From the NCBI GenBank assembly GCA_048940925.1, contig JBHLOC010000053.1:6823-23612 (forward strand): a stretch of DNA of 16,790 bases, in the 5' to 3' direction. Shown piece after piece: positions 675 through 15,028 of the stretch; the stretch's first letter is position 1; the number at the start of each line of letters is the position of its first letter. Below the pieces are notes generated by a model, which saw nothing but the letters and a program-made list of their open reading frames with translations, had not been told where the DNA came from and made no database searches. Both the position numbers and the translations under genes were made by a program. The stretch is from Promethearchaeota archaeon (lineage in GTDB: Archaea > Asgardarchaeota > Lokiarchaeia > Sigyniarchaeales > SOKP01).

Positions 675-1333
675 TTAGTAAATATATGGAATCAAACGTT
701 TAGTTTTTTCCATATATATTTCATAATCCTTGCCAAATTTTTCTTTAAGTATATTTTCTTCTAAATCCATACGATTTTTAAATAAGATAAATAAGGAAAG
801 GAAAAAAACAAAAGGTGATATAAGACTTCTAAACGACAAAGCATATCCAAAAAAACTAAGATCATTCCGAGATATAGTGGATGCCTTATATATTTATATA
901 TCCCTTTAATTATTAAGCGATGATTTTCCTCAATAGTAATCTTAGAGCTCCCATATTTTCCAAGTAATAATCTGCTATATATTAAAATAATTCCACCAAT
1001 GATTAAGAGGAAAATACCACATAGATATGTGATTGAATTATCCCAAATTCTAAGAATCTGTTGAATGAAAACGAGATTTTCTAAATATGGAAGAATTACA
1101 ATAAGAGGAAGAAGTAGGAATAACAAAATAGAGATTATAGGATATTTAAATTGATCTTTTTTTGAAGAAATCGGTCTAATATTAATATCTAAACATAAAA
1201 TTATATTGAAAATCATTAAAATGAGTAAGTTATTAATATTAGAATAGACCTCCTTAGCGAATATTAAGAAACCTAAATTAAGGAAAGAGATTAAAAATAC
1301 TGTAGCAATAACTTTTCTTAAATAATTTTTCAT
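675..1333 (-). pseudogene. Isoprenylcysteine carboxyl methyltransferase (ICMT/PEMT) family membrane protein, interrupted by a -1 frameshift (or a homopolymer sequencing error)
   Basis: The ORF 761..1339 carries L(I)xxGIYKYIRHPLY and then drifts off-family after the A7/T7 run at 849-855. Adding one T gives ...VFFGYALSFRS...KNRMDLEENILKEKFGKDYEIYMEKTKRLIPYIY* ending at TAA 677-675, the canonical ICMT C-terminus. ATG at 1333; restored length 219 aa. Confidence 0.8.
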
Positions 1334-1453
1334 TGTCAATCTTTTAAAAAATATTTAAAATATATTTACTTTAGATTAAAGTTTTATTTGAGTAGTTATA
1401 AATTTTATGTATACTTCTTTTCTACTTATTAGATTAGTGGTTAAATACTTTAA

Positions 1454-1469
1454 TTTAGGAATACCTAAA
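1454..1469. promoter_or_regulatory. Palindrome TTTAGG-AATA-CCTAAA in the divergent ICMT promoter region, candidate operator
   Basis: Perfect 6-4-6 inverted repeat about 25 nt upstream of the 1493 gene. Confidence 0.3.
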
Positions 1470-1492
1470 AATTTAAATAGCAGGAATAATAT

Positions 1493-2077
1493 TTGAAATT
1501 GATGGAAATTTTTCCAAGAATTCAGCTAGTGTTTTTAGGCGGATGGATGTTATTAGTTTGTAGTTGGTTAATAACCTTAATTCCACTTACTCTTTTACCA
1601 AAATCAGTTGTCTCGAGGTTGTTTGATAGATCTACATTTACTAGAAAACAAAAAATCCATACTATAATTTCAAAATTATTAGGACTAATAGTTCTGATTT
1701 TATGTTTTTTCTCTCCTTTAATTTTTGGGTGGGAACTTATACTTGGATTAACTTTATTTGGAATAGGAACGATTGGGTTAATAATTGCGATATTAAATTT
1801 TAAAAATACTCCACTTGATACACCGGTAATGCGGGGATTATATAGGATTTCACGTCATCCCCAAGAAGTTATGATATTCATTTATATTTTAGGCATTGTA
1901 ATAGCTATAGGCTCTGGAATTGCTCTAATTATATTGCTTATCTCTCGAATCTTTTTTCATTATAGAATATTAGCTGAAGAAGAAGCTTGTATAAAAAAAT
2001 ATGGAGATTCTTATTTAAAATACAAGAAAAGAGTTCCGCGATATTTTTTAAGAATTCAAATTAGTGAAATAGGATGA
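1493..2077 (+). CDS. ICMT/PEMT family membrane methyltransferase
   Basis: Several TM segments; GLYRISRHPQ, RILAEEEACIKKYGDSYLKYKKRVPRY. Start is TTG 1493 or ATG 1502. Confidence 0.85.
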   Translation: MKLMEIFPRIQLVFLGGWMLLVCSWLITLIPLTLLPKSVVSRLFDRSTFTRKQKIHTIISKLLGLIVLILCFFSPLIFGWELILGLTLFGIGTIGLIIAILNFKNTPLDTPVMRGLYRISRHPQEVMIFIYILGIVIAIGSGIALIILLISRIFFHYRILAEEEACIKKYGDSYLKYKKRVPRYFLRIQISEIG

Positions 2078-2688
2078 TAGAATCACTACATATTAAAATT
2101 TTTTTTATTATTTCAATACTATTATTTCTAGTCGGATTTTTTTGGCCTCTCATTTTAGTTAAAAAAAGCGGAAAAAATCCACATGGTACTCATGAAGGAG
2201 CTTCTATTTTAACCAGACTTAGTTCAGTGTCAATTTTTTTATGGTTAGGATTCATTATTTTATATTTATTTCTCAATAATACTTTAGAAAGCTTTTTGCA
2301 GTTTGATTTTTTGGCTAATGATATTATAGTTTTAATTGGTATGGTGATTGTATCTATAGGTTTTTTATTTGAAATCTTAGGAATTAAAGCACTTGGGATT
2401 AACTTTAGGATTGAACTACCTACTGATGAGACTGAACTAATTACTTCAGGAATTTATAGACAAATGAGAAATCCCATTGTTTTTGGAATTTTTTTGCTCG
2501 TTATTGGAAGCTTTTTAATTATACCAACAGGAATTACATTAATAATAACAATATTCAACATTATTACGTTTAATTCAAAAGCAATTACTGAAGAAAAGTA
2601 TCTGTTAAGTAAATTTGGTGAAGCATATAGAAAATATAAGAATTCAGTAGGAAGATATTTACCATTTAGGATAGCAAAAAAAACCTAA
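2074..2688 (+). CDS. ICMT/PEMT family membrane methyltransferase
   Basis: ALGINFRI, LITSGIYRQMRNPI, EEKYLLSKFGEAYRKYKNSVGRYLP. ATGA overlap with the upstream gene suggests translational coupling. Confidence 0.88.
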   Translation: MIESLHIKIFFIISILLFLVGFFWPLILVKKSGKNPHGTHEGASILTRLSSVSIFLWLGFIILYLFLNNTLESFLQFDFLANDIIVLIGMVIVSIGFLFEILGIKALGINFRIELPTDETELITSGIYRQMRNPIVFGIFLLVIGSFLIIPTGITLIITIFNIITFNSKAITEEKYLLSKFGEAYRKYKNSVGRYLPFRIAKKT

Positions 2689-8934: not shown

Positions 8935-9319
8935 TAACTAGATTTATTAGTAAAAAAAGGAATTAGAAAGATTAATATCAAGGAATTTTGAAAGATTAAA
9001 ATGTGTGGGAGAGGGAAATCTTAAATTTCTAATTTACATAATTTTATATCTTACAGATTCCCTTTTTTTTAAATTTTTAAATAAATAGAAGCTTAAAATA
9101 ATTTCTTCAATAGAGAAGAAGAATTTGTATTAAACTACTGTAATTAAGGCAGTTCTGGATTTTCCCATCCCATAAAATTTTATTTTGCATTCATACATTA
9201 GACATTTCCTAGAAGAATTATCAAATAATTAGGGATAATGTATAAAAAAAAATAATTGGAAATTTAGGAATTATAGAAATTTGATACTTACAATTGCTAT
9301 AATTTATCTACTAAATATT

Positions 9320-10313: not shown

Positions 10314-10324
10314 AAAAAAAAAAA
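10314..10324 (-). terminator. Oligo-T terminator of the cooF-cooS-FNOR operon
   Basis: A11 on + (T11 on -) 14 nt after the FNOR stop at 10338. Confidence 0.55.
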
Positions 10325-10337
10325 TATTTAGTTGAAA

Positions 10338-11573
10338 TTAAAAGATTGTTTGTAGCATAGCTGCGTCTGTCTCAATCATACCTATATTAAATCTATCTTT
10401 TAGCAATAGCTTTTTATATTTAGAAACATCACGTTTACTTGTCATAAGTGAGTGGAATACGCCGGCATTTTGCATTGTATTAATTAGCATATAACCATTA
10501 ATATGTGAGTTACTAAGATATATTTTCTTATAAGTATCATTTTTAAAAAATTTCAATTCCTCTCCTTCATATACTCCATCTGAAATTATCGGTGTCCCAA
10601 ATACCTTAATAATGGTTTGTATAGCAGATCCATCATATTTTGATTTCCTTCCAATCATATTATAACCTGCAACTGCTCCTTGAGTTAATGCGTTAGTCCA
10701 AAGTAATATAGATTCTCGATTTCCTGTTAAAATATTAATAGATTCAGTAATATCTCCTGCAGCATATACATCGGGGGCATTTGTTTCAAGATATTCATTT
10801 ACAATTATTCCTGAATTTGTTTTAATTCCACTACCTTGTAAAAATTCTAAATTAGGCTTAACACCTGTAGCAATTATAACAATATCTGTATCTAAGACAG
10901 TTCCATCGGCTAATTTAACATTCTTTACTCTTTTTTTACCTATAATCTTAGAAATATTATTTTCTAATAATAGATTGATGTCATTTTTTTCAAGAATCTC
11001 TTTTGCTATATCTCCCATTTCTCTGTCAAGCATTCGAGGTAGAACTCTATCTAAGGCTTCTACAATAGTAACATCTATATTTTTTTTCTTCAGTCCCTCA
11101 GCAGCATCAAGACCTATAAAGCCTCCGCCAAGTACAACTGCTTTTTTAACTTTTTGTGTATTAAGCCAATTATAAATACTATCAGTATCATTCAGGGTTT
11201 TGAAGGTAAAAACTCCATCTATATCAAGTCCCTTTATGTCTGGTACATCAACATGTCCACCTCCTGCTATGAGAAGTTTATCGTAGTCAACAGATTCTGA
11301 ATTTACTAAAACTTTTTTATGTTCAGGTTGAATGCTTTTTACTTCTTTACCTAAAATTGACCTAATATTCATACGATTGAAGAAATCTTTCCCTTTCCAG
11401 AAGATATTATCTCTTTCTTCCTCTTCCAAGATGTAATGGCAGAGAAGACAAGCCGAATATGGTGGAACATCTTCTTTTGAAATCATTATGATTTCTGATT
11501 CTTGATCATATTCTCGTATCGCTTCAACACAACTTACTCCTGCGCCCCCAGTACCAATTATCACATGTCTCAT
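10338..11573 (-). CDS. FAD-dependent NAD(P)H oxidoreductase (FNOR; NirB-N-terminal/rubredoxin-reductase-like), CODH-associated
   Basis: HVIIGTGGAG (FAD), YDKLLIAGG, VVLGGGFIGLD (NAD), ATGVKPN, TNAPDVYAAGD. GGTGAGGAG SD favours ATG 11573 over GTG 11594. Confidence 0.9.
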   Translation of the reverse strand: MRHVIIGTGGAGVSCVEAIREYDQESEIIMISKEDVPPYSACLLCHYILEEEERDNIFWKGKDFFNRMNIRSILGKEVKSIQPEHKKVLVNSESVDYDKLLIAGGGHVDVPDIKGLDIDGVFTFKTLNDTDSIYNWLNTQKVKKAVVLGGGFIGLDAAEGLKKKNIDVTIVEALDRVLPRMLDREMGDIAKEILEKNDINLLLENNISKIIGKKRVKNVKLADGTVLDTDIVIIATGVKPNLEFLQGSGIKTNSGIIVNEYLETNAPDVYAAGDITESINILTGNRESILLWTNALTQGAVAGYNMIGRKSKYDGSAIQTIIKVFGTPIISDGVYEGEELKFFKNDTYKKIYLSNSHINGYMLINTMQNAGVFHSLMTSKRDVSKYKKLLLKDRFNIGMIETDAAMLQTIF

Positions 11574-11602
11574 TTTTCTCCTCACCTTCTTCACATGAAA
11601 TA

Positions 11603-13504
11603 TTACATAGGTGCAGCAATTGGTGGTTCTGTTAATCCAAGTGCTTTTCGTTTTTCTTCAATATGATTAATTATTAATTCTGCTTCTTTCTCAGGATCTG
11701 GCTCTACAGCAAAAGTAGCTCCAACAACATCATTAAGTCCTTGTGTAAGAAGCGTGGTAACATTTTTGCTTCCTAACACTGGAGGTATAGCACCAAGAAC
11801 AGTAAATATACCTGAAGAGACGACATAGGCTCCTATACTAACTGCTTTTTCTGACATCCATTCAGGTGCAGCACCTGCAACTGGTAAGTCGCTTATGTCT
11901 ACATTTAGAGCTTTTGCAATAGCTGCTGCAACATTCATTATTCTACTTATATCTACACAAGATCCCATATGTAAAACAGGAGGAATACCAAGAGCTTTTG
12001 CAATTTGTTTTAACCCTTCACCTGCTTGGTCTGCTGCTTCTGGAACCAATAAACCCGCTTTACCACAAGCAATAGCAGAACATCCTGTTTCAACTACTAG
12101 AATATTATTTTCAATTAACCTCTTCGCAAGTGTTACATGATTATAATCATGCTTTATCTTTGGATTATTGCACCCCACAAGAGCCGCAATTCCTCTTATC
12201 TTACCATCTTTTATAGCATCGATGAGAGGTTCTGCAGTTCCACCAAGAGCTTTAATAATTGCTTCAGTAGAAAATCCACCCATTAATTTAACAGGATTTT
12301 TTGGGATATTCACACGATCAGGATTTCTATTTACAAAATTTTCAACAGCTTCTTTGACTATATTTTTTCCAATCTCGTATGCACGCTCTGGTTCAAATTC
12401 CATATGCATGGCTCCTTGCATCTTTGCTTTAGGGGAAGTAGTTATTAATTTAGTATGATAACAACTAGCAGTAGAAGAGAGTGCAGGCATAAGACACTGA
12501 TAATCAATTACCATTGCTTCTATAGCACCAGTTATTAATGCCAGCTCTTGTACTAAAAAATTACCTGCAATAGGAATTCCTTTTCTCATTAAGAGTTCAT
12601 TTGCAGTACAACATATTCCAGCTATATTAATTCCATTAGCACCTTTTTGTTTTGCTAACTCAATCATTTCAGAATCTCTACATGCATCTACAACCATTTC
12701 AGATAGCACTGGATTATGCCCATGGACAATAATATTTACCATATCTTCTTTTAACACAGCTAAGTTTACTGAACTTTCTTTTGGCTCAGGAGTTCCAAAT
12801 AAAATGTCACTAAATTCTGTAGCAATCATAGATCCGCCCCAACCATCACTAAGTGATGCTCTAAGACCATGTAATAATATGTTTGCATAATCTGCACCAA
12901 CACCAATATGGGTACGATGCATAATTTCGACTATTTCTCTATCAATACTTCTTGGCCAAATGCCAACATTTTTCCATAAATCTTTCCTTTTCTCTGGTAC
13001 TCGTTCAGCAAATTGGATTGTGTTTTTCACCATTCCAAATTCGTCCATTGCCTTTTCAGCTAACTCCTTTGCAATATCTTCTTTAGTTCTACCATCTAAA
13101 ACAACTTTATATTCTTGCGCTAGTCGTTTTAATTTCTCTTCATCAGTAATTTGATATCCAAATGTTTTACCTTCAGCAGTTAAATGAAGAACTTCAACTA
13201 TATCTCTCCCATGATCTGAGTGGGCAGCAGCTCCAGCAGCAATCATTCTTGCTAGATTTCTAGCTACAATTATATCTGAATCAGCACCACACACCCCTCG
13301 AGTTGGTTCATCTCCAAAAGGATCAATTCTACAGGGTCCCATTGCACAATTTCGGCAACAAATTCCTAGTAATCCATAACCACATTGTGGTTCTTGAGAT
13401 TCTAATCTGTCCCATGCTGTATTAATATGTTCTTCAGCCGCTTTTTCTAAGATTGGTTGAGCGGTTCTATCGATTGTTCTTTCAAAAATTTCTTCCTTTA
13501 TCAT
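11603..13504 (-). CDS. cooS: Anaerobic Ni,Fe carbon monoxide dehydrogenase catalytic subunit (CooS type)
   Basis: D/B-cluster PQCGYGLLGICCRNCAMGPC and GVCG; AAHSDH; C-cluster ligands HGHNP, GICCTANE, DYQC, GCNNPK, TGCSA, HMGSCVD; catalytic Lys in WMSEKA. AGGTGA SD favours ATG 13504 (GTG 13516 is the alternative). Confidence 0.97.
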   Translation of the reverse strand: MIKEEIFERTIDRTAQPILEKAAEEHINTAWDRLESQEPQCGYGLLGICCRNCAMGPCRIDPFGDEPTRGVCGADSDIIVARNLARMIAAGAAAHSDHGRDIVEVLHLTAEGKTFGYQITDEEKLKRLAQEYKVVLDGRTKEDIAKELAEKAMDEFGMVKNTIQFAERVPEKRKDLWKNVGIWPRSIDREIVEIMHRTHIGVGADYANILLHGLRASLSDGWGGSMIATEFSDILFGTPEPKESSVNLAVLKEDMVNIIVHGHNPVLSEMVVDACRDSEMIELAKQKGANGINIAGICCTANELLMRKGIPIAGNFLVQELALITGAIEAMVIDYQCLMPALSSTASCYHTKLITTSPKAKMQGAMHMEFEPERAYEIGKNIVKEAVENFVNRNPDRVNIPKNPVKLMGGFSTEAIIKALGGTAEPLIDAIKDGKIRGIAALVGCNNPKIKHDYNHVTLAKRLIENNILVVETGCSAIACGKAGLLVPEAADQAGEGLKQIAKALGIPPVLHMGSCVDISRIMNVAAAIAKALNVDISDLPVAGAAPEWMSEKAVSIGAYVVSSGIFTVLGAIPPVLGSKNVTTLLTQGLNDVVGATFAVEPDPEKEAELIINHIEEKRKALGLTEPPIAAPM

Positions 13505-13512
13505 TTTTATTT

Positions 13513-14121
13513 TCACCTACCTACTTTGGTCATAGAGAGAGCCAAATCACGCCATAATTTTACTAATTCAGGAACTTTTGCTTCAATTTGCATTTCTGCT
13601 GCAAATTGTGTAGCGGTTTTAGCCATAAGTTTTCTTTCTTCCTTGATAATCTCATTGATATCTCCATATAGAAGAGCTCCCGTTTTACAAGCTTCAACAC
13701 AGGCAGGGATTAAATCTGTATTAATACGCTCAAAGCAATTATCGCATTTATTAGCAACATCACGTTCAATAGAAACGCGCCAAGATGGATTAAACGTAAT
13801 AGCATCAAAAGGACAAACAATTGCACACATACCACATTCGATACATTTTTCATCATTAATAAGAACGATGTTTGTATCTTTATCTCTAGTTATAGCTCCA
13901 GAAGGGCAAGCTTGTATACATGGTGTTGGGTCACAATGTGAACATTTACCAGGATAAGCCATTATTCCAAAAGTAGGCATCACATGAATTTTCGAATTAG
14001 GCAAGGGTTCTTCAGATATTGCAGTATAAAGATTTTTTGTCTTAGAATGTTCTATTGTACAAGCAATTTCACAATGTTTACACCCAATACAGTTTTCGGG
14101 CCTTACAAAAACAGATTCCAT
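13513..14121 (-). CDS. cooF: CooF-type 4x[4Fe-4S] electron-transfer protein
   Basis: 16 Cys in the DmsB/CooF pattern: CIGCKHCEIAC, CSHCDPTPCIQAC, CIECGMCAIVC, KCDNC...PACVEAC; directly upstream of cooS; SD GAGGGAG at 14135-14129. Confidence 0.92.
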   Translation of the reverse strand: MESVFVRPENCIGCKHCEIACTIEHSKTKNLYTAISEEPLPNSKIHVMPTFGIMAYPGKCSHCDPTPCIQACPSGAITRDKDTNIVLINDEKCIECGMCAIVCPFDAITFNPSWRVSIERDVANKCDNCFERINTDLIPACVEACKTGALLYGDINEIIKEERKLMAKTATQFAAEMQIEAKVPELVKLWRDLALSMTKVGR

Positions 14122-14344
14122 TTAAAGACTCCCTCTTTTTAATAGTTTTTTTCTTTCTTATTTTTTGAAAAGTTTTTAGTTAGATTTCTCGATTCCTAAA
14201 AAAGATAACACTTTATAAAAATATATGTAAATGAAGGTTTTTCCCAACATTAAGACCCTCTATATTAAATATATAGCTTATTTTTATATATTGAAATTTT
14301 TTATTTCTTCTTAGAGAATCCTATTAAAGGAAAGGAAATAACAA

Positions 14345-15028
14345 ATGTTAGTCTCAAGAAATTATTTATTAATGATCCTTGATGAGGAAAAAGGAAAGCT
14401 TTACTCTCGAGCTTCGGCAGCAAAAGATCTTGGATTAATAGGAGCAATGTTGATGGATTTATATCTACGTGGTAAAATCTTGGTTGAAAGAAAAAAAATA
14501 AGAGTCATTGATCCAACCCCAACTGGAGATGAGCTTTTAGATGATGTATTGGAAATCTTGGATAGATCAAAAAAAATTAGGAAATTAAATAGATGGCTTG
14601 GATGGATTTCAAGAAGGTATAAAACATATTACTATGCCTTTTTTAAACGATTAGAGAAGCAAGAAATTCTGAAAATAAAAGTTAAAAAGACATTTAAAAT
14701 TTTTGAATCAAAAAGATTTTATTTGCAAAGAGCAGAAGTAAAATTGGTGATTCTGGAACAGATACAGAATGCAATAGTTAATAATTTAAGTCCTAGTATA
14801 GATTTATTATGTTTATTAAGCTTATTGGAAGTGAGTGGGTTAATAAAGGTATATATAGCAAAAGAATTTCGAAAACAATTTAGAATTCGGATAAATGAGT
14901 TAATTTATTCAGGAAACTTGAATCCAAGAGATCAAGAAATGATAATAAGCATAACAAAAGCTATAAAAGAAATAATAGCTGCGAGGCAAGCTACTGTAAC
15001 TGTTGTCGTTACTGCTGCTGTGGCATAA
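14345..15028 (+). CDS. GPP34 family protein (GOLPH3/Vps74 homolog)
   Basis: LLMILDEEKGK, LGLIGAMLMDLYLRGKI, VIDPTPTGDELLDDVLE, W, RLEKQEIL followed by a hairpin KKTFKIFESKRFY, LLSLL, and an Ala/Val-rich tail: the hallmark pattern of the GPP34 family. Confidence 0.85.
   Translation: MLVSRNYLLMILDEEKGKLYSRASAAKDLGLIGAMLMDLYLRGKILVERKKIRVIDPTPTGDELLDDVLEILDRSKKIRKLNRWLGWISRRYKTYYYAFFKRLEKQEILKIKVKKTFKIFESKRFYLQRAEVKLVILEQIQNAIVNNLSPSIDLLCLLSLLEVSGLIKVYIAKEFRKQFRIRINELIYSGNLNPRDQEMIISITKAIKEIIAARQATVTVVVTAAVA

Follow-up and report, generated by a model that had tools for sequence, protein, structure and literature searches.

The cooF-cooS-FNOR operon described here lies on the minus strand, at positions 10338-14121 of a 16,790-nucleotide stretch of DNA (the window; contig C52:6823-23612 of genome G000; G+C 30%) from a member of the Lokiarchaeial Asgard archaea (Promethearchaeota). 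It probably encodes a soluble, monofunctional Ni,Fe-carbon monoxide dehydrogenase (CODH) module, wired via the ferredoxin-like protein CooF to an FAD/NAD flavoprotein (FNOR), which would pass the electrons of CO to a pyridine nucleotide. In the list of open reading frames (ORFs), three co-directional ORFs fill the whole span, with intergenic gaps of 8 nt (cooF-cooS) and 29 nt (cooS-FNOR), so that CooS, CooF and an FAD/NAD(P) oxidoreductase are found in one directon, which is the gene content of the Ni-CODH/FNOR units. The locus is intact and probably co-transcribed. A first-pass annotation of the window had described three tightly spaced genes with Shine-Dalgarno motifs and a T11 terminator, a CooS subunit that retains every D-, B- and C-cluster ligand together with the catalytic His and Lys, and a module that is separate from acetyl-CoA synthase (ACS) and from an energy-converting hydrogenase. 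These three descriptions agree with the data given below.

CooS passes the curated anaerobic CODH model TIGR01702 (724.9 bits, with a cut-off of 478) and matches PF03063 Prismane with 630 bits. The cysteines of the D- and B-clusters are present as C41 and C49 (corresponding to Cys39/47 of ChCODH-II) and as C50, C53, C58 and C72 (Cys48/51/56/70). The C-cluster ligands are H263 (His261), C299 (Cys295), C337 (Cys333), C445 (Cys446), C475 (Cys476) and C516 (Cys526), and the catalytic residues are H95 (His93) and K553 (Lys563). All these residues are invariant in an alignment with 23 homologues, the register having been checked via I563 and W555 of Tc-CODH2 (PMC13703895). The presence of a cysteine (C299), not a glutamate, at the Cys295 position separates this CooS from the CooS-V/hybrid-cluster-like class. 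The best match in the PDB, over the full length, is CODH2 of Thermococcus sp. AM4 (6T7J, 834 bits), followed by the enzymes of D. vulgaris and C. autoethanogenum, by CODH-IV (6ELQ, 661 bits) and by CODH-II. The Thermococcus enzyme is the closest solved CooS and shares the C-x7-C D-cluster motif, the Trp at Tc-555 and the Ile at Tc-563, although it shows only ~60% identity to a near relative. W549 of the window CooS is at the position of A559 of Ch-CODH-II, and this site has been linked to O2 tolerance, a link that is disputed (PMC13703895).

The electron-transfer partners of CooS resemble two subunits of a solved complex. CooF has 16 cysteines in four motifs (C11/14/17/21, C60/63/68/72, C93/96/99/103 and C126/129/141/145), which are invariant in a 19-sequence alignment, and these motifs, together with the 8-nt distance to cooS, are those of a CooF-type four-cluster ferredoxin. 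Its relatives in the PDB are NrfC, HycB3/4 and AorA (8C0Z_C, 7.8e-13). The best PDB match of FNOR is AorC of the same entry (8C0Z_E, 2.9e-49), the other strong relatives being NADH oxidases, CoA-disulfide and persulfide reductases and NADH peroxidase. The best NCBIfam matches of FNOR, PadH and CoA-disulfide reductase, are both under their own cut-offs (239 bits against 578.8 for TIGR03385, the CoA-disulfide reductase model), as is Nox (178 against 600). PadH/PadI of the NADH-dependent phenylglyoxylate dehydrogenase rank among the NCBIfam matches of FNOR and CooF. FNOR has two GxGxxG folds, in which G7 and G149/G151/G154 are invariant, and it aligns with AorC through the VTIVE strand, the NAD-binding Rossmann strand ending in Glu in both proteins. 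FNOR also has a cysteine, Cys42, within a PYS[AP]C motif. A CxC-type redox disulfide, C42-x2-C45, was considered for FNOR and dropped, since C45 occurs in only 15 of 34 Lokiarchaeial sequences.

In AorABC of Aromatoleum aromaticum (8C0Z), a solved complex, a W-cofactor subunit, a four-cluster Fe-S subunit and an FAD subunit together reduce NAD+ (PMC12318220). The logic that is shared with the window operon is that of a metallo-subunit connected to a polyferredoxin, then to FAD and finally to NAD+. The two systems differ in the catalytic subunit (tungstopterin in AorABC, Ni,Fe-CODH here) and in Cys42 of FNOR, which AorC does not have. Both CooF and FNOR are homologous to the corresponding Aor subunits, and their docking is also predicted by co-folding: the CooF-FNOR pair passes with a score of 0.89, the best of three controls having 0.00; the pass mark is one that 58 of 80 solved complexes and 2 of 110 mismatched pairs attain. 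At least 80% of the contacts agree between the runs, and the predicted local distance difference test score (pLDDT) of the partner is at least 91. The predicted interface is formed by residues 92-106 of CooF, which include the third cluster motif, and by residues 40-46, 292-300, 319-332 and 367-406 of FNOR, the C-terminal domain included. CooF also has a C-terminal tail of ~45 residues (~158-202; window positions 13516-13650), which is common to the CooFs of some Chloroflexota and Bacillota loci with the same gene order and is missing in others. AorA, WorS and HycB, which are homologous to CooF, form Fe-S "nanowire" filaments by means of a helix at the C-terminus (PMC12318220).

In the mechanism proposed for this module, the C-cluster of dimeric CooS would oxidize CO to CO2, and the electrons would pass via the B- and D-clusters to the four [4Fe-4S] clusters of CooF. 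By way of its third cluster motif (C93-C103), CooF would dock on the flavin side of FNOR, whose FAD would then reduce a pyridine nucleotide. The acceptor is probably NAD+, since a Glu closes the NAD-binding strand both here and in AorC, which reduces NAD+. The CO/CO2 couple is ~200 mV more negative than NAD+/NADH, and therefore the module should run in the CO-oxidizing direction. CooS would be matured by CooC-like ATPases that are encoded elsewhere in the genome, and the role of the module may be CO scavenging, detoxification or the supply of reductant. The CO:NAD(P)+ activity of this module is what we infer from these comparisons, and several points weigh against it. No CO sensor, cooC or Ni transporter gene is linked to the operon. 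The pass in the co-folding may reflect mere likeness to, or memory of, the 8C0Z structure, because a like complex is already solved there. The choice of NAD+ over NADP+ is read from one residue in one alignment. FNOR has a Cys42 that is missing from AorC, and so a (per)sulfide, peroxide or O2 could be the final acceptor in place of NAD+. Finally, the literature yielded no biochemical work on an FNOR linked to a CODH: none existed in 2019 according to PMC6344411, and none was found later.

It can alternatively be proposed that the electrons of CO reach the FAD of FNOR and are then used for Cys42-dependent reduction of O2, H2O2, CoA-disulfide or persulfide, with NAD(P)H as a side partner at most. 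This would follow the role proposed for the CODH-IV cluster of Carboxydothermus and for clostridial clusters, and oxidative-stress roles have been proposed for clusters of this kind (PMC4703632, PMC6344411). Cys42 is kept in 33 of 34 Lokiarchaeial and in 7 of 7 sister sequences, NADH oxidase, NADH peroxidase and CoA-disulfide reductase have a like cysteine, these families come after AorC in the PDB ranking, and the Trp at position 549 of CooS, with its disputed link to O2 tolerance, is of interest in the same context. However, the cysteine is present in just 37 of 75 more distant FNORs, FNOR scores far under the CoA-disulfide reductase and Nox equivalog cut-offs, and its best structural relative is an NAD+ reductase without this cysteine. 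Moreover, no rubrerythrin, peroxiredoxin or other gene related to reactive oxygen species is found in the window. Such an acceptor is considered to be rather unlikely. It is also conceivable that the module is a redox-balancing CO2 reductase, for example one that feeds ACS, or that the complex bifurcates electrons between NAD+ and a second acceptor. This seems highly doubtful, considering that NADH alone cannot drive CO2 reduction (as is established from standard potentials), that a second flavin or bifurcation-type subunit is missing, and that the genome has its own CdhA, with cdhB-cdhC on another contig.

In the rest of the genome, an archaeal CdhA (1068 bits) is encoded on contig C66 and cdhB-cdhC on contig C77, separate from cdhA. 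The operon is an addition to the CODH/ACS and not a replacement of it, because the genome has its own CdhA, CdhB-CdhC and CooC-like ATPases. No ACS (CdhC/AcsB), corrinoid protein or hydrogenase genes are found among the window ORFs, and no energy-converting hydrogenase genes adjoin cooS-cooF, which separates the operon from both the CODH/ACS and the hydrogenogenic cluster classes. The CODH/ACS genes themselves are split: cdhA stands alone (C66:11271-13616), and cdhB-cdhC (C77, L252:7451-9473) lie without cdhA behind two tandem amidase genes. The two CooC-like ATPases, which are encoded at C71:65210-65983 and C30:107434-108219 and are unlinked to the operon, have the GKGGxGKT (Walker A) and CxC motifs and are recognized by these motifs alone, no CooC-specific match being obtained with NCBIfam. 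On contig C71 (L243:702-2256), an HdrB/TfrB-like gene is followed by a 263-residue ORF that weakly resembles the N-terminal part of CdhC/ACS, and a CooC-like ATPase gene (GKGGTGKT, CFC) comes directly after this ORF.

Units composed of CooS, CooF and FNOR have been proposed to oxidize CO and to reduce NAD(P)+ (PMC4703632, PMC6344411), and they occur with several CODH clades, including E-1 (PMC6344411, PMC4703632, PMC13240472). Geobacter sulfurreducens, which grows on CO, has a clade E-1 CooS in such a cluster (PMC4703632, PMC6344411), and for this unit the transfer of electrons from CO to NAD(P)+ was proposed by Geelhoed et al. in 2016 (PMC4703632). The GSU2098-2095 genes of G. sulfurreducens and the clostridial cooS-cooF-FNOR genes encode the same three tightly linked, co-directional components as the window operon, namely a CooS with complete motifs, a CooF with four clusters and an FAD/NAD(P) oxidoreductase. 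The CooS of Geobacter is reported to be nearest to a Thermococcus CooS (PMC4703632), and the best PDB match of the window CooS is likewise from Thermococcus. The window operon differs from the Geobacter and clostridial units by its order, cooF-cooS-FNOR, by the lack of cooC and of RcoM/CooA, and by its Asgard host. Between its FNOR and those that adjoin the bacterial CooS sampled, identity does not exceed 39%. The Geobacter FNOR is reported to be only 29% identical to the CHY FNOR (PMC4703632).

The CODH-IV cluster of Carboxydothermus hydrogenoformans (cooF-cooS-IV-FNOR-rubrerythrin), which the first-pass annotation had taken as an example, has the same cooF-cooS-FNOR order. It is not the closest model, since there is no rubrerythrin gene among the window ORFs and since the CODH-IV structure ranks below three other enzymes, the window CooS being nearer to the Thermococcus AM4 CODH2. 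The same annotation had described CooF-CooS-FNOR clusters as mainly bacterial and the route as little described. The putative unit is, however, published for many lineages, including archaea (PMC6344411, PMC4703632), the Lokiarchaeial genes are already annotated publicly, and one Lokiarchaeota Ni-CODH is present in the 2019 survey of Inoue et al. (PMC6344411); in Asgard archaea, the unit is rare. No paper that discusses a cooF-cooS-FNOR operon in Asgard archaea was found in the literature.

That the operon belongs to the genome in which it was found is supported by several observations. The closest named homologues of CooS and FNOR (65-95% identity) carry the label Promethearchaeota, which the NCBI taxonomy lists as an archaeal phylum, and include the marine-sediment metagenome record LCGC14_0955910. 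The G+C content of the contig is 0.299, like that of the rest of the genome. A congeneric species, G182, carries the operon on a 111-kb contig, where an enoyl-CoA hydratase gene and a GPP34-family gene again adjoin it, within a neighborhood of ~14 kb with 78-92% protein identity. The flanks common to both species comprise, on one side, the ICMT genes, an MFS gene, a cold-shock protein gene and the enoyl-CoA hydratase gene and, on the other, the GPP34 gene and the genes of a DNA methylase and a flavin reductase. From four DNA runs, short Logan contigs (no listed piece exceeds 1.5 kb) cover the window and span the cooF-cooS and cooS-FNOR junctions. Among the pieces listed, none bridges the flanks of the operon, and therefore it is the synteny with G182 that speaks for a non-chimeric contig. 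Given the host-like composition, the Asgard-type genes and the same flanks in G182, it is very unlikely that the contig is chimeric or a contaminant. The Asgard host that the first-pass annotation had thought probable is thus confirmed by the Promethearchaeota relatives and by the Ras, gelsolin-like and GPP34 genes on the contig, and the bacterial or chimeric contig that it had named as a possible objection is not what is found. It could be suspected that the operon is contaminating DNA, or was recently imported from bacteria, that it was placed in an Asgard metagenome-assembled genome (MAG) by binning and that it is irrelevant to Lokiarchaeial physiology, because the estimated contamination of the MAG is 8.4% and because CooS phylogenies are known for lateral transfer (PMC3328121). 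This explanation is hardly credible in view of the evidence just given, and in view of the nine Asgard genomes and the many Promethearchaeota-labelled proteins that fall into one clade.

Among 400 Asgard species genomes, orthologues of the operon (at least 80% identity) are found in nine, all of one family: in five of the 54 species of the window's genus and in four of the 42 species of a second genus. Further relatives occur in one genome with a 61% relative and CooF only and in one genome with a 49% relative, and a canonical CooS is found in 11 of the 400 genomes. The order cooF-cooS-FNOR is kept in all nine orthologue-bearing genomes, with gaps of 6-52 nt. The flanks of the operon differ among these genomes, the sister species G182 excepted. 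The protein identities to G182 are 95% for CooS, 92% for CooF and 70% for FNOR; to G208 and G213 they are 91%, 73-75% and 82%, respectively. The identity matrices of CooF, CooS and FNOR disagree with one another among the nine genomes. Because the drop in DNA identity to G182 is confined to the FNOR core (Table 1), this pattern indicates an allele replacement by recombination. G209, a species of the window's genus, has an operon of the type found in the other genus. When these comparisons are considered together, the module is best described as an accessory trait that a minority of the Lokiarchaeial species carry and that recombination has reshuffled among them. The operon is not common and vertically inherited, which was the other objection raised in the first-pass annotation: it is present in 9 of the 400 genomes and has a lateral history. 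It is possible, though unlikely, that the module is a mobile cassette exchanged among Lokiarchaeia in which the Cys42-bearing FNOR couples CO oxidation to a thiol/persulfide or oxygen-species acceptor, not simply to NAD+.

The phylogenetic position of CooS was examined in two trees, calculated with FastTree (277 sequences) and with IQ-TREE (LG+C20 PMSF, quick search; 69 sequences). In both trees, all CooS sequences of the Lokiarchaeial operons form one clade (support 99) with an internal divergence of ~20%. The successive sisters of this clade are the metagenomic sequences P0029/P0030, P0032/P0088 and P0031 (support of the joint clade 99). The next neighbors are mixed, comprising Chloroflexota, Bacillota, Thermodesulfobacteriota, Petrotoga, WOR-3, Methanomicrobiales and Methanomassiliicoccales, so that the Lokiarchaeial clade is nested in a mixed bacterial/archaeal clade-E radiation. 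The cooF-cooS-FNOR order is also found in loci of Bacillota, Chloroflexota, Thermodesulfobacteriota and Archaeoglobaceae (MAG). The FNORs closest to the Lokiarchaeial clade have 55-59% identity, one of those at 55% being labelled as a Desulfurococcales MAG. CooS and FNOR have probably travelled together in the sister lineages as well, because the best matches of both sit on contigs of equal recorded size.

A lateral history of the operon is supported by these trees. A recent bacterial import was considered and rejected in view of the host-like base composition, the synteny with the sister species and the depth of the clade, and the trees and the distribution point to an old, patchy accessory module. 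The horizontal acquisition that the first-pass annotation had thought probable is therefore retained as a lateral history, in view of the nested position in a mixed clade and of the presence in 9 of 400 genomes. It is not retained as a recent event, nor as a transfer from a bacterial donor, the sister sequences being metagenomic and the same gene order being present in an Archaeoglobaceae MAG.

The genome has a second "CooS" gene (contig C69:8534-10438), with neither CooF nor FNOR alongside. This paralogue is ~35% identical to the window CooS, is found in ~77 of the 400 Asgard genomes and has CooS-V (7B7Q, 671 bits) as its best solved relative. In the paralogue of contig C69 and in 19 sampled Asgard copies (L029-L047), there is a Glu at the Cys295 position, a Tyr at the catalytic His and an Arg at one D-cluster Cys. 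The protein scaffold is the same, but the window CooS keeps the Cys and the His, whereas the CooS-V type has Glu and Tyr. CooS-V of C. hydrogenoformans oxidizes no CO (7B7Q; PMC9311411). Most Asgard "cooS" calls are probably not CO dehydrogenases, because the widespread paralogue is CooS-V-like, with the Cys295 to Glu and the His to Tyr changes. As judged from its ligand residues, it is the cooF-cooS-FNOR operon that holds the canonical, C-cluster-complete monofunctional form of CooS in the Asgard sample. In several Lokiarchaeial genomes (L032, L035, L036, L039, L041, L043 and L044), a divergently transcribed gene of an FNOR-like flavoprotein, ~31% identical to the window FNOR, lies 180-220 nt upstream of the CooS-V-like gene; the window's genome does not have this arrangement.

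The features of the operon are listed in Table 1. The start of cooS is most likely the ATG at 13504 and not the GTG at 13516 of the mechanical ORF list, because the resulting length is that of nearly all close homologues, and the start of FNOR is most likely the ATG at 11573 and not the GTG at 11594, because its length then matches the homologue lengths. Shine-Dalgarno-like motifs precede all three starts, that of cooF being weaker (GAGGGAG, 8 nt ahead), and a comparison of upstream sequences shows that such motifs are absent from most other window genes. The T11 run is the longest T run on the minus strand within the window, and the other window T runs of at least T9 likewise sit just past gene ends. 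Oligo-T termination is expected in archaea. No CooA- or RcoM-like regulator gene is found among the window ORFs, and none adjoins the presumed promoter region.

Table 1. Features of the cooF-cooS-FNOR locus (window positions).
Feature	Positions	Strand	Description
cooF	13513..14121	-	202 aa; ferredoxin-like; four [4Fe-4S] binding motifs; PF13247 Fer4_11, 73 bits
cooS	11603..13504	-	633 aa; canonical Ni,Fe-CODH catalytic subunit; clade-E-like; C-x7-C D-cluster motif; TIGR01702
FNOR	10338..11573	-	411 aa; FAD/NAD(P)-binding flavoprotein of the pyridine nucleotide-disulfide oxidoreductase superfamily; PF07992 Pyr_redox_2, 215 bits
GGTGA, Shine-Dalgarno-like motif for cooS	13513..13517	-	9 nt before the start; overlaps the cooF stop codon
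GGTGAGGAG, Shine-Dalgarno-like motif for FNOR	11578..11586	-	5 nt before the start
T11 run, probable archaeal oligo-T terminator	10314..10324	-	13 nt after the FNOR stop
Presumed operon promoter region: AT-rich intergenic stretch from cooF to the divergent GPP34-family gene	14122..14344		from reading of the sequence
FNOR core, recombinant patch compared with the sister species G182	10479..11528	-	DNA identity 63-82%; 85-95% in the rest of the syntenic locus

The contig also carries eukaryote-like genes, namely the GPP34 (GOLPH3/Vps74) family gene beside the operon (14345-15028) and a Ras-family GTPase gene (L016:5557-6093). Other contig proteins have a weak gelsolin-repeat match and a weak MIT match (L017:6831-7994 and L016:2067-3440, respectively). 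At window positions 675-2688 there is a cluster of three genes of ICMT/PEMT-family membrane methyltransferases; G182 also has three, and the pairwise identities differ. An insertion of ~0.6 kb between the cold-shock and the enoyl-CoA hydratase genes is seen in G182 (window position 9133 compared with L233) and is missing from the window.

The kind of system described here has been described before; what is gained concerns scope and annotation and involves no new principle. The interest of the operon lies in its rarity and mobility within Lokiarchaeia, in the contrast with the CooS-V-like paralogue and in the CooF-FNOR interface. Reconstructions of Asgard metabolism draw almost exclusively on the genes that the genomes contain, and the presence of "cooS" is routinely taken to indicate CO use or a Wood-Ljungdahl pathway. 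In this lineage, the widespread CooS-V-like form has to be distinguished from the rare canonical form, which is always accompanied by CooF and an FAD/NAD flavoprotein. The CooF-FNOR pair, with its testable interface, also lends itself to biochemical work, which would be the first on any FNOR linked to a CODH. If the module were an exchanged cassette with a Cys42-dependent acceptor, some Lokiarchaeia would have a CO-fuelled protective or sulfur-reducing route that is missed by surveys in which the CooS-V-like paralogue is counted as "cooS". If the module is indeed a CO:NAD+ oxidoreductase, a minority of sediment Lokiarchaeia would draw low-potential electrons from trace CO into NADH without the use of ACS, ferredoxin pools or a hydrogenase.

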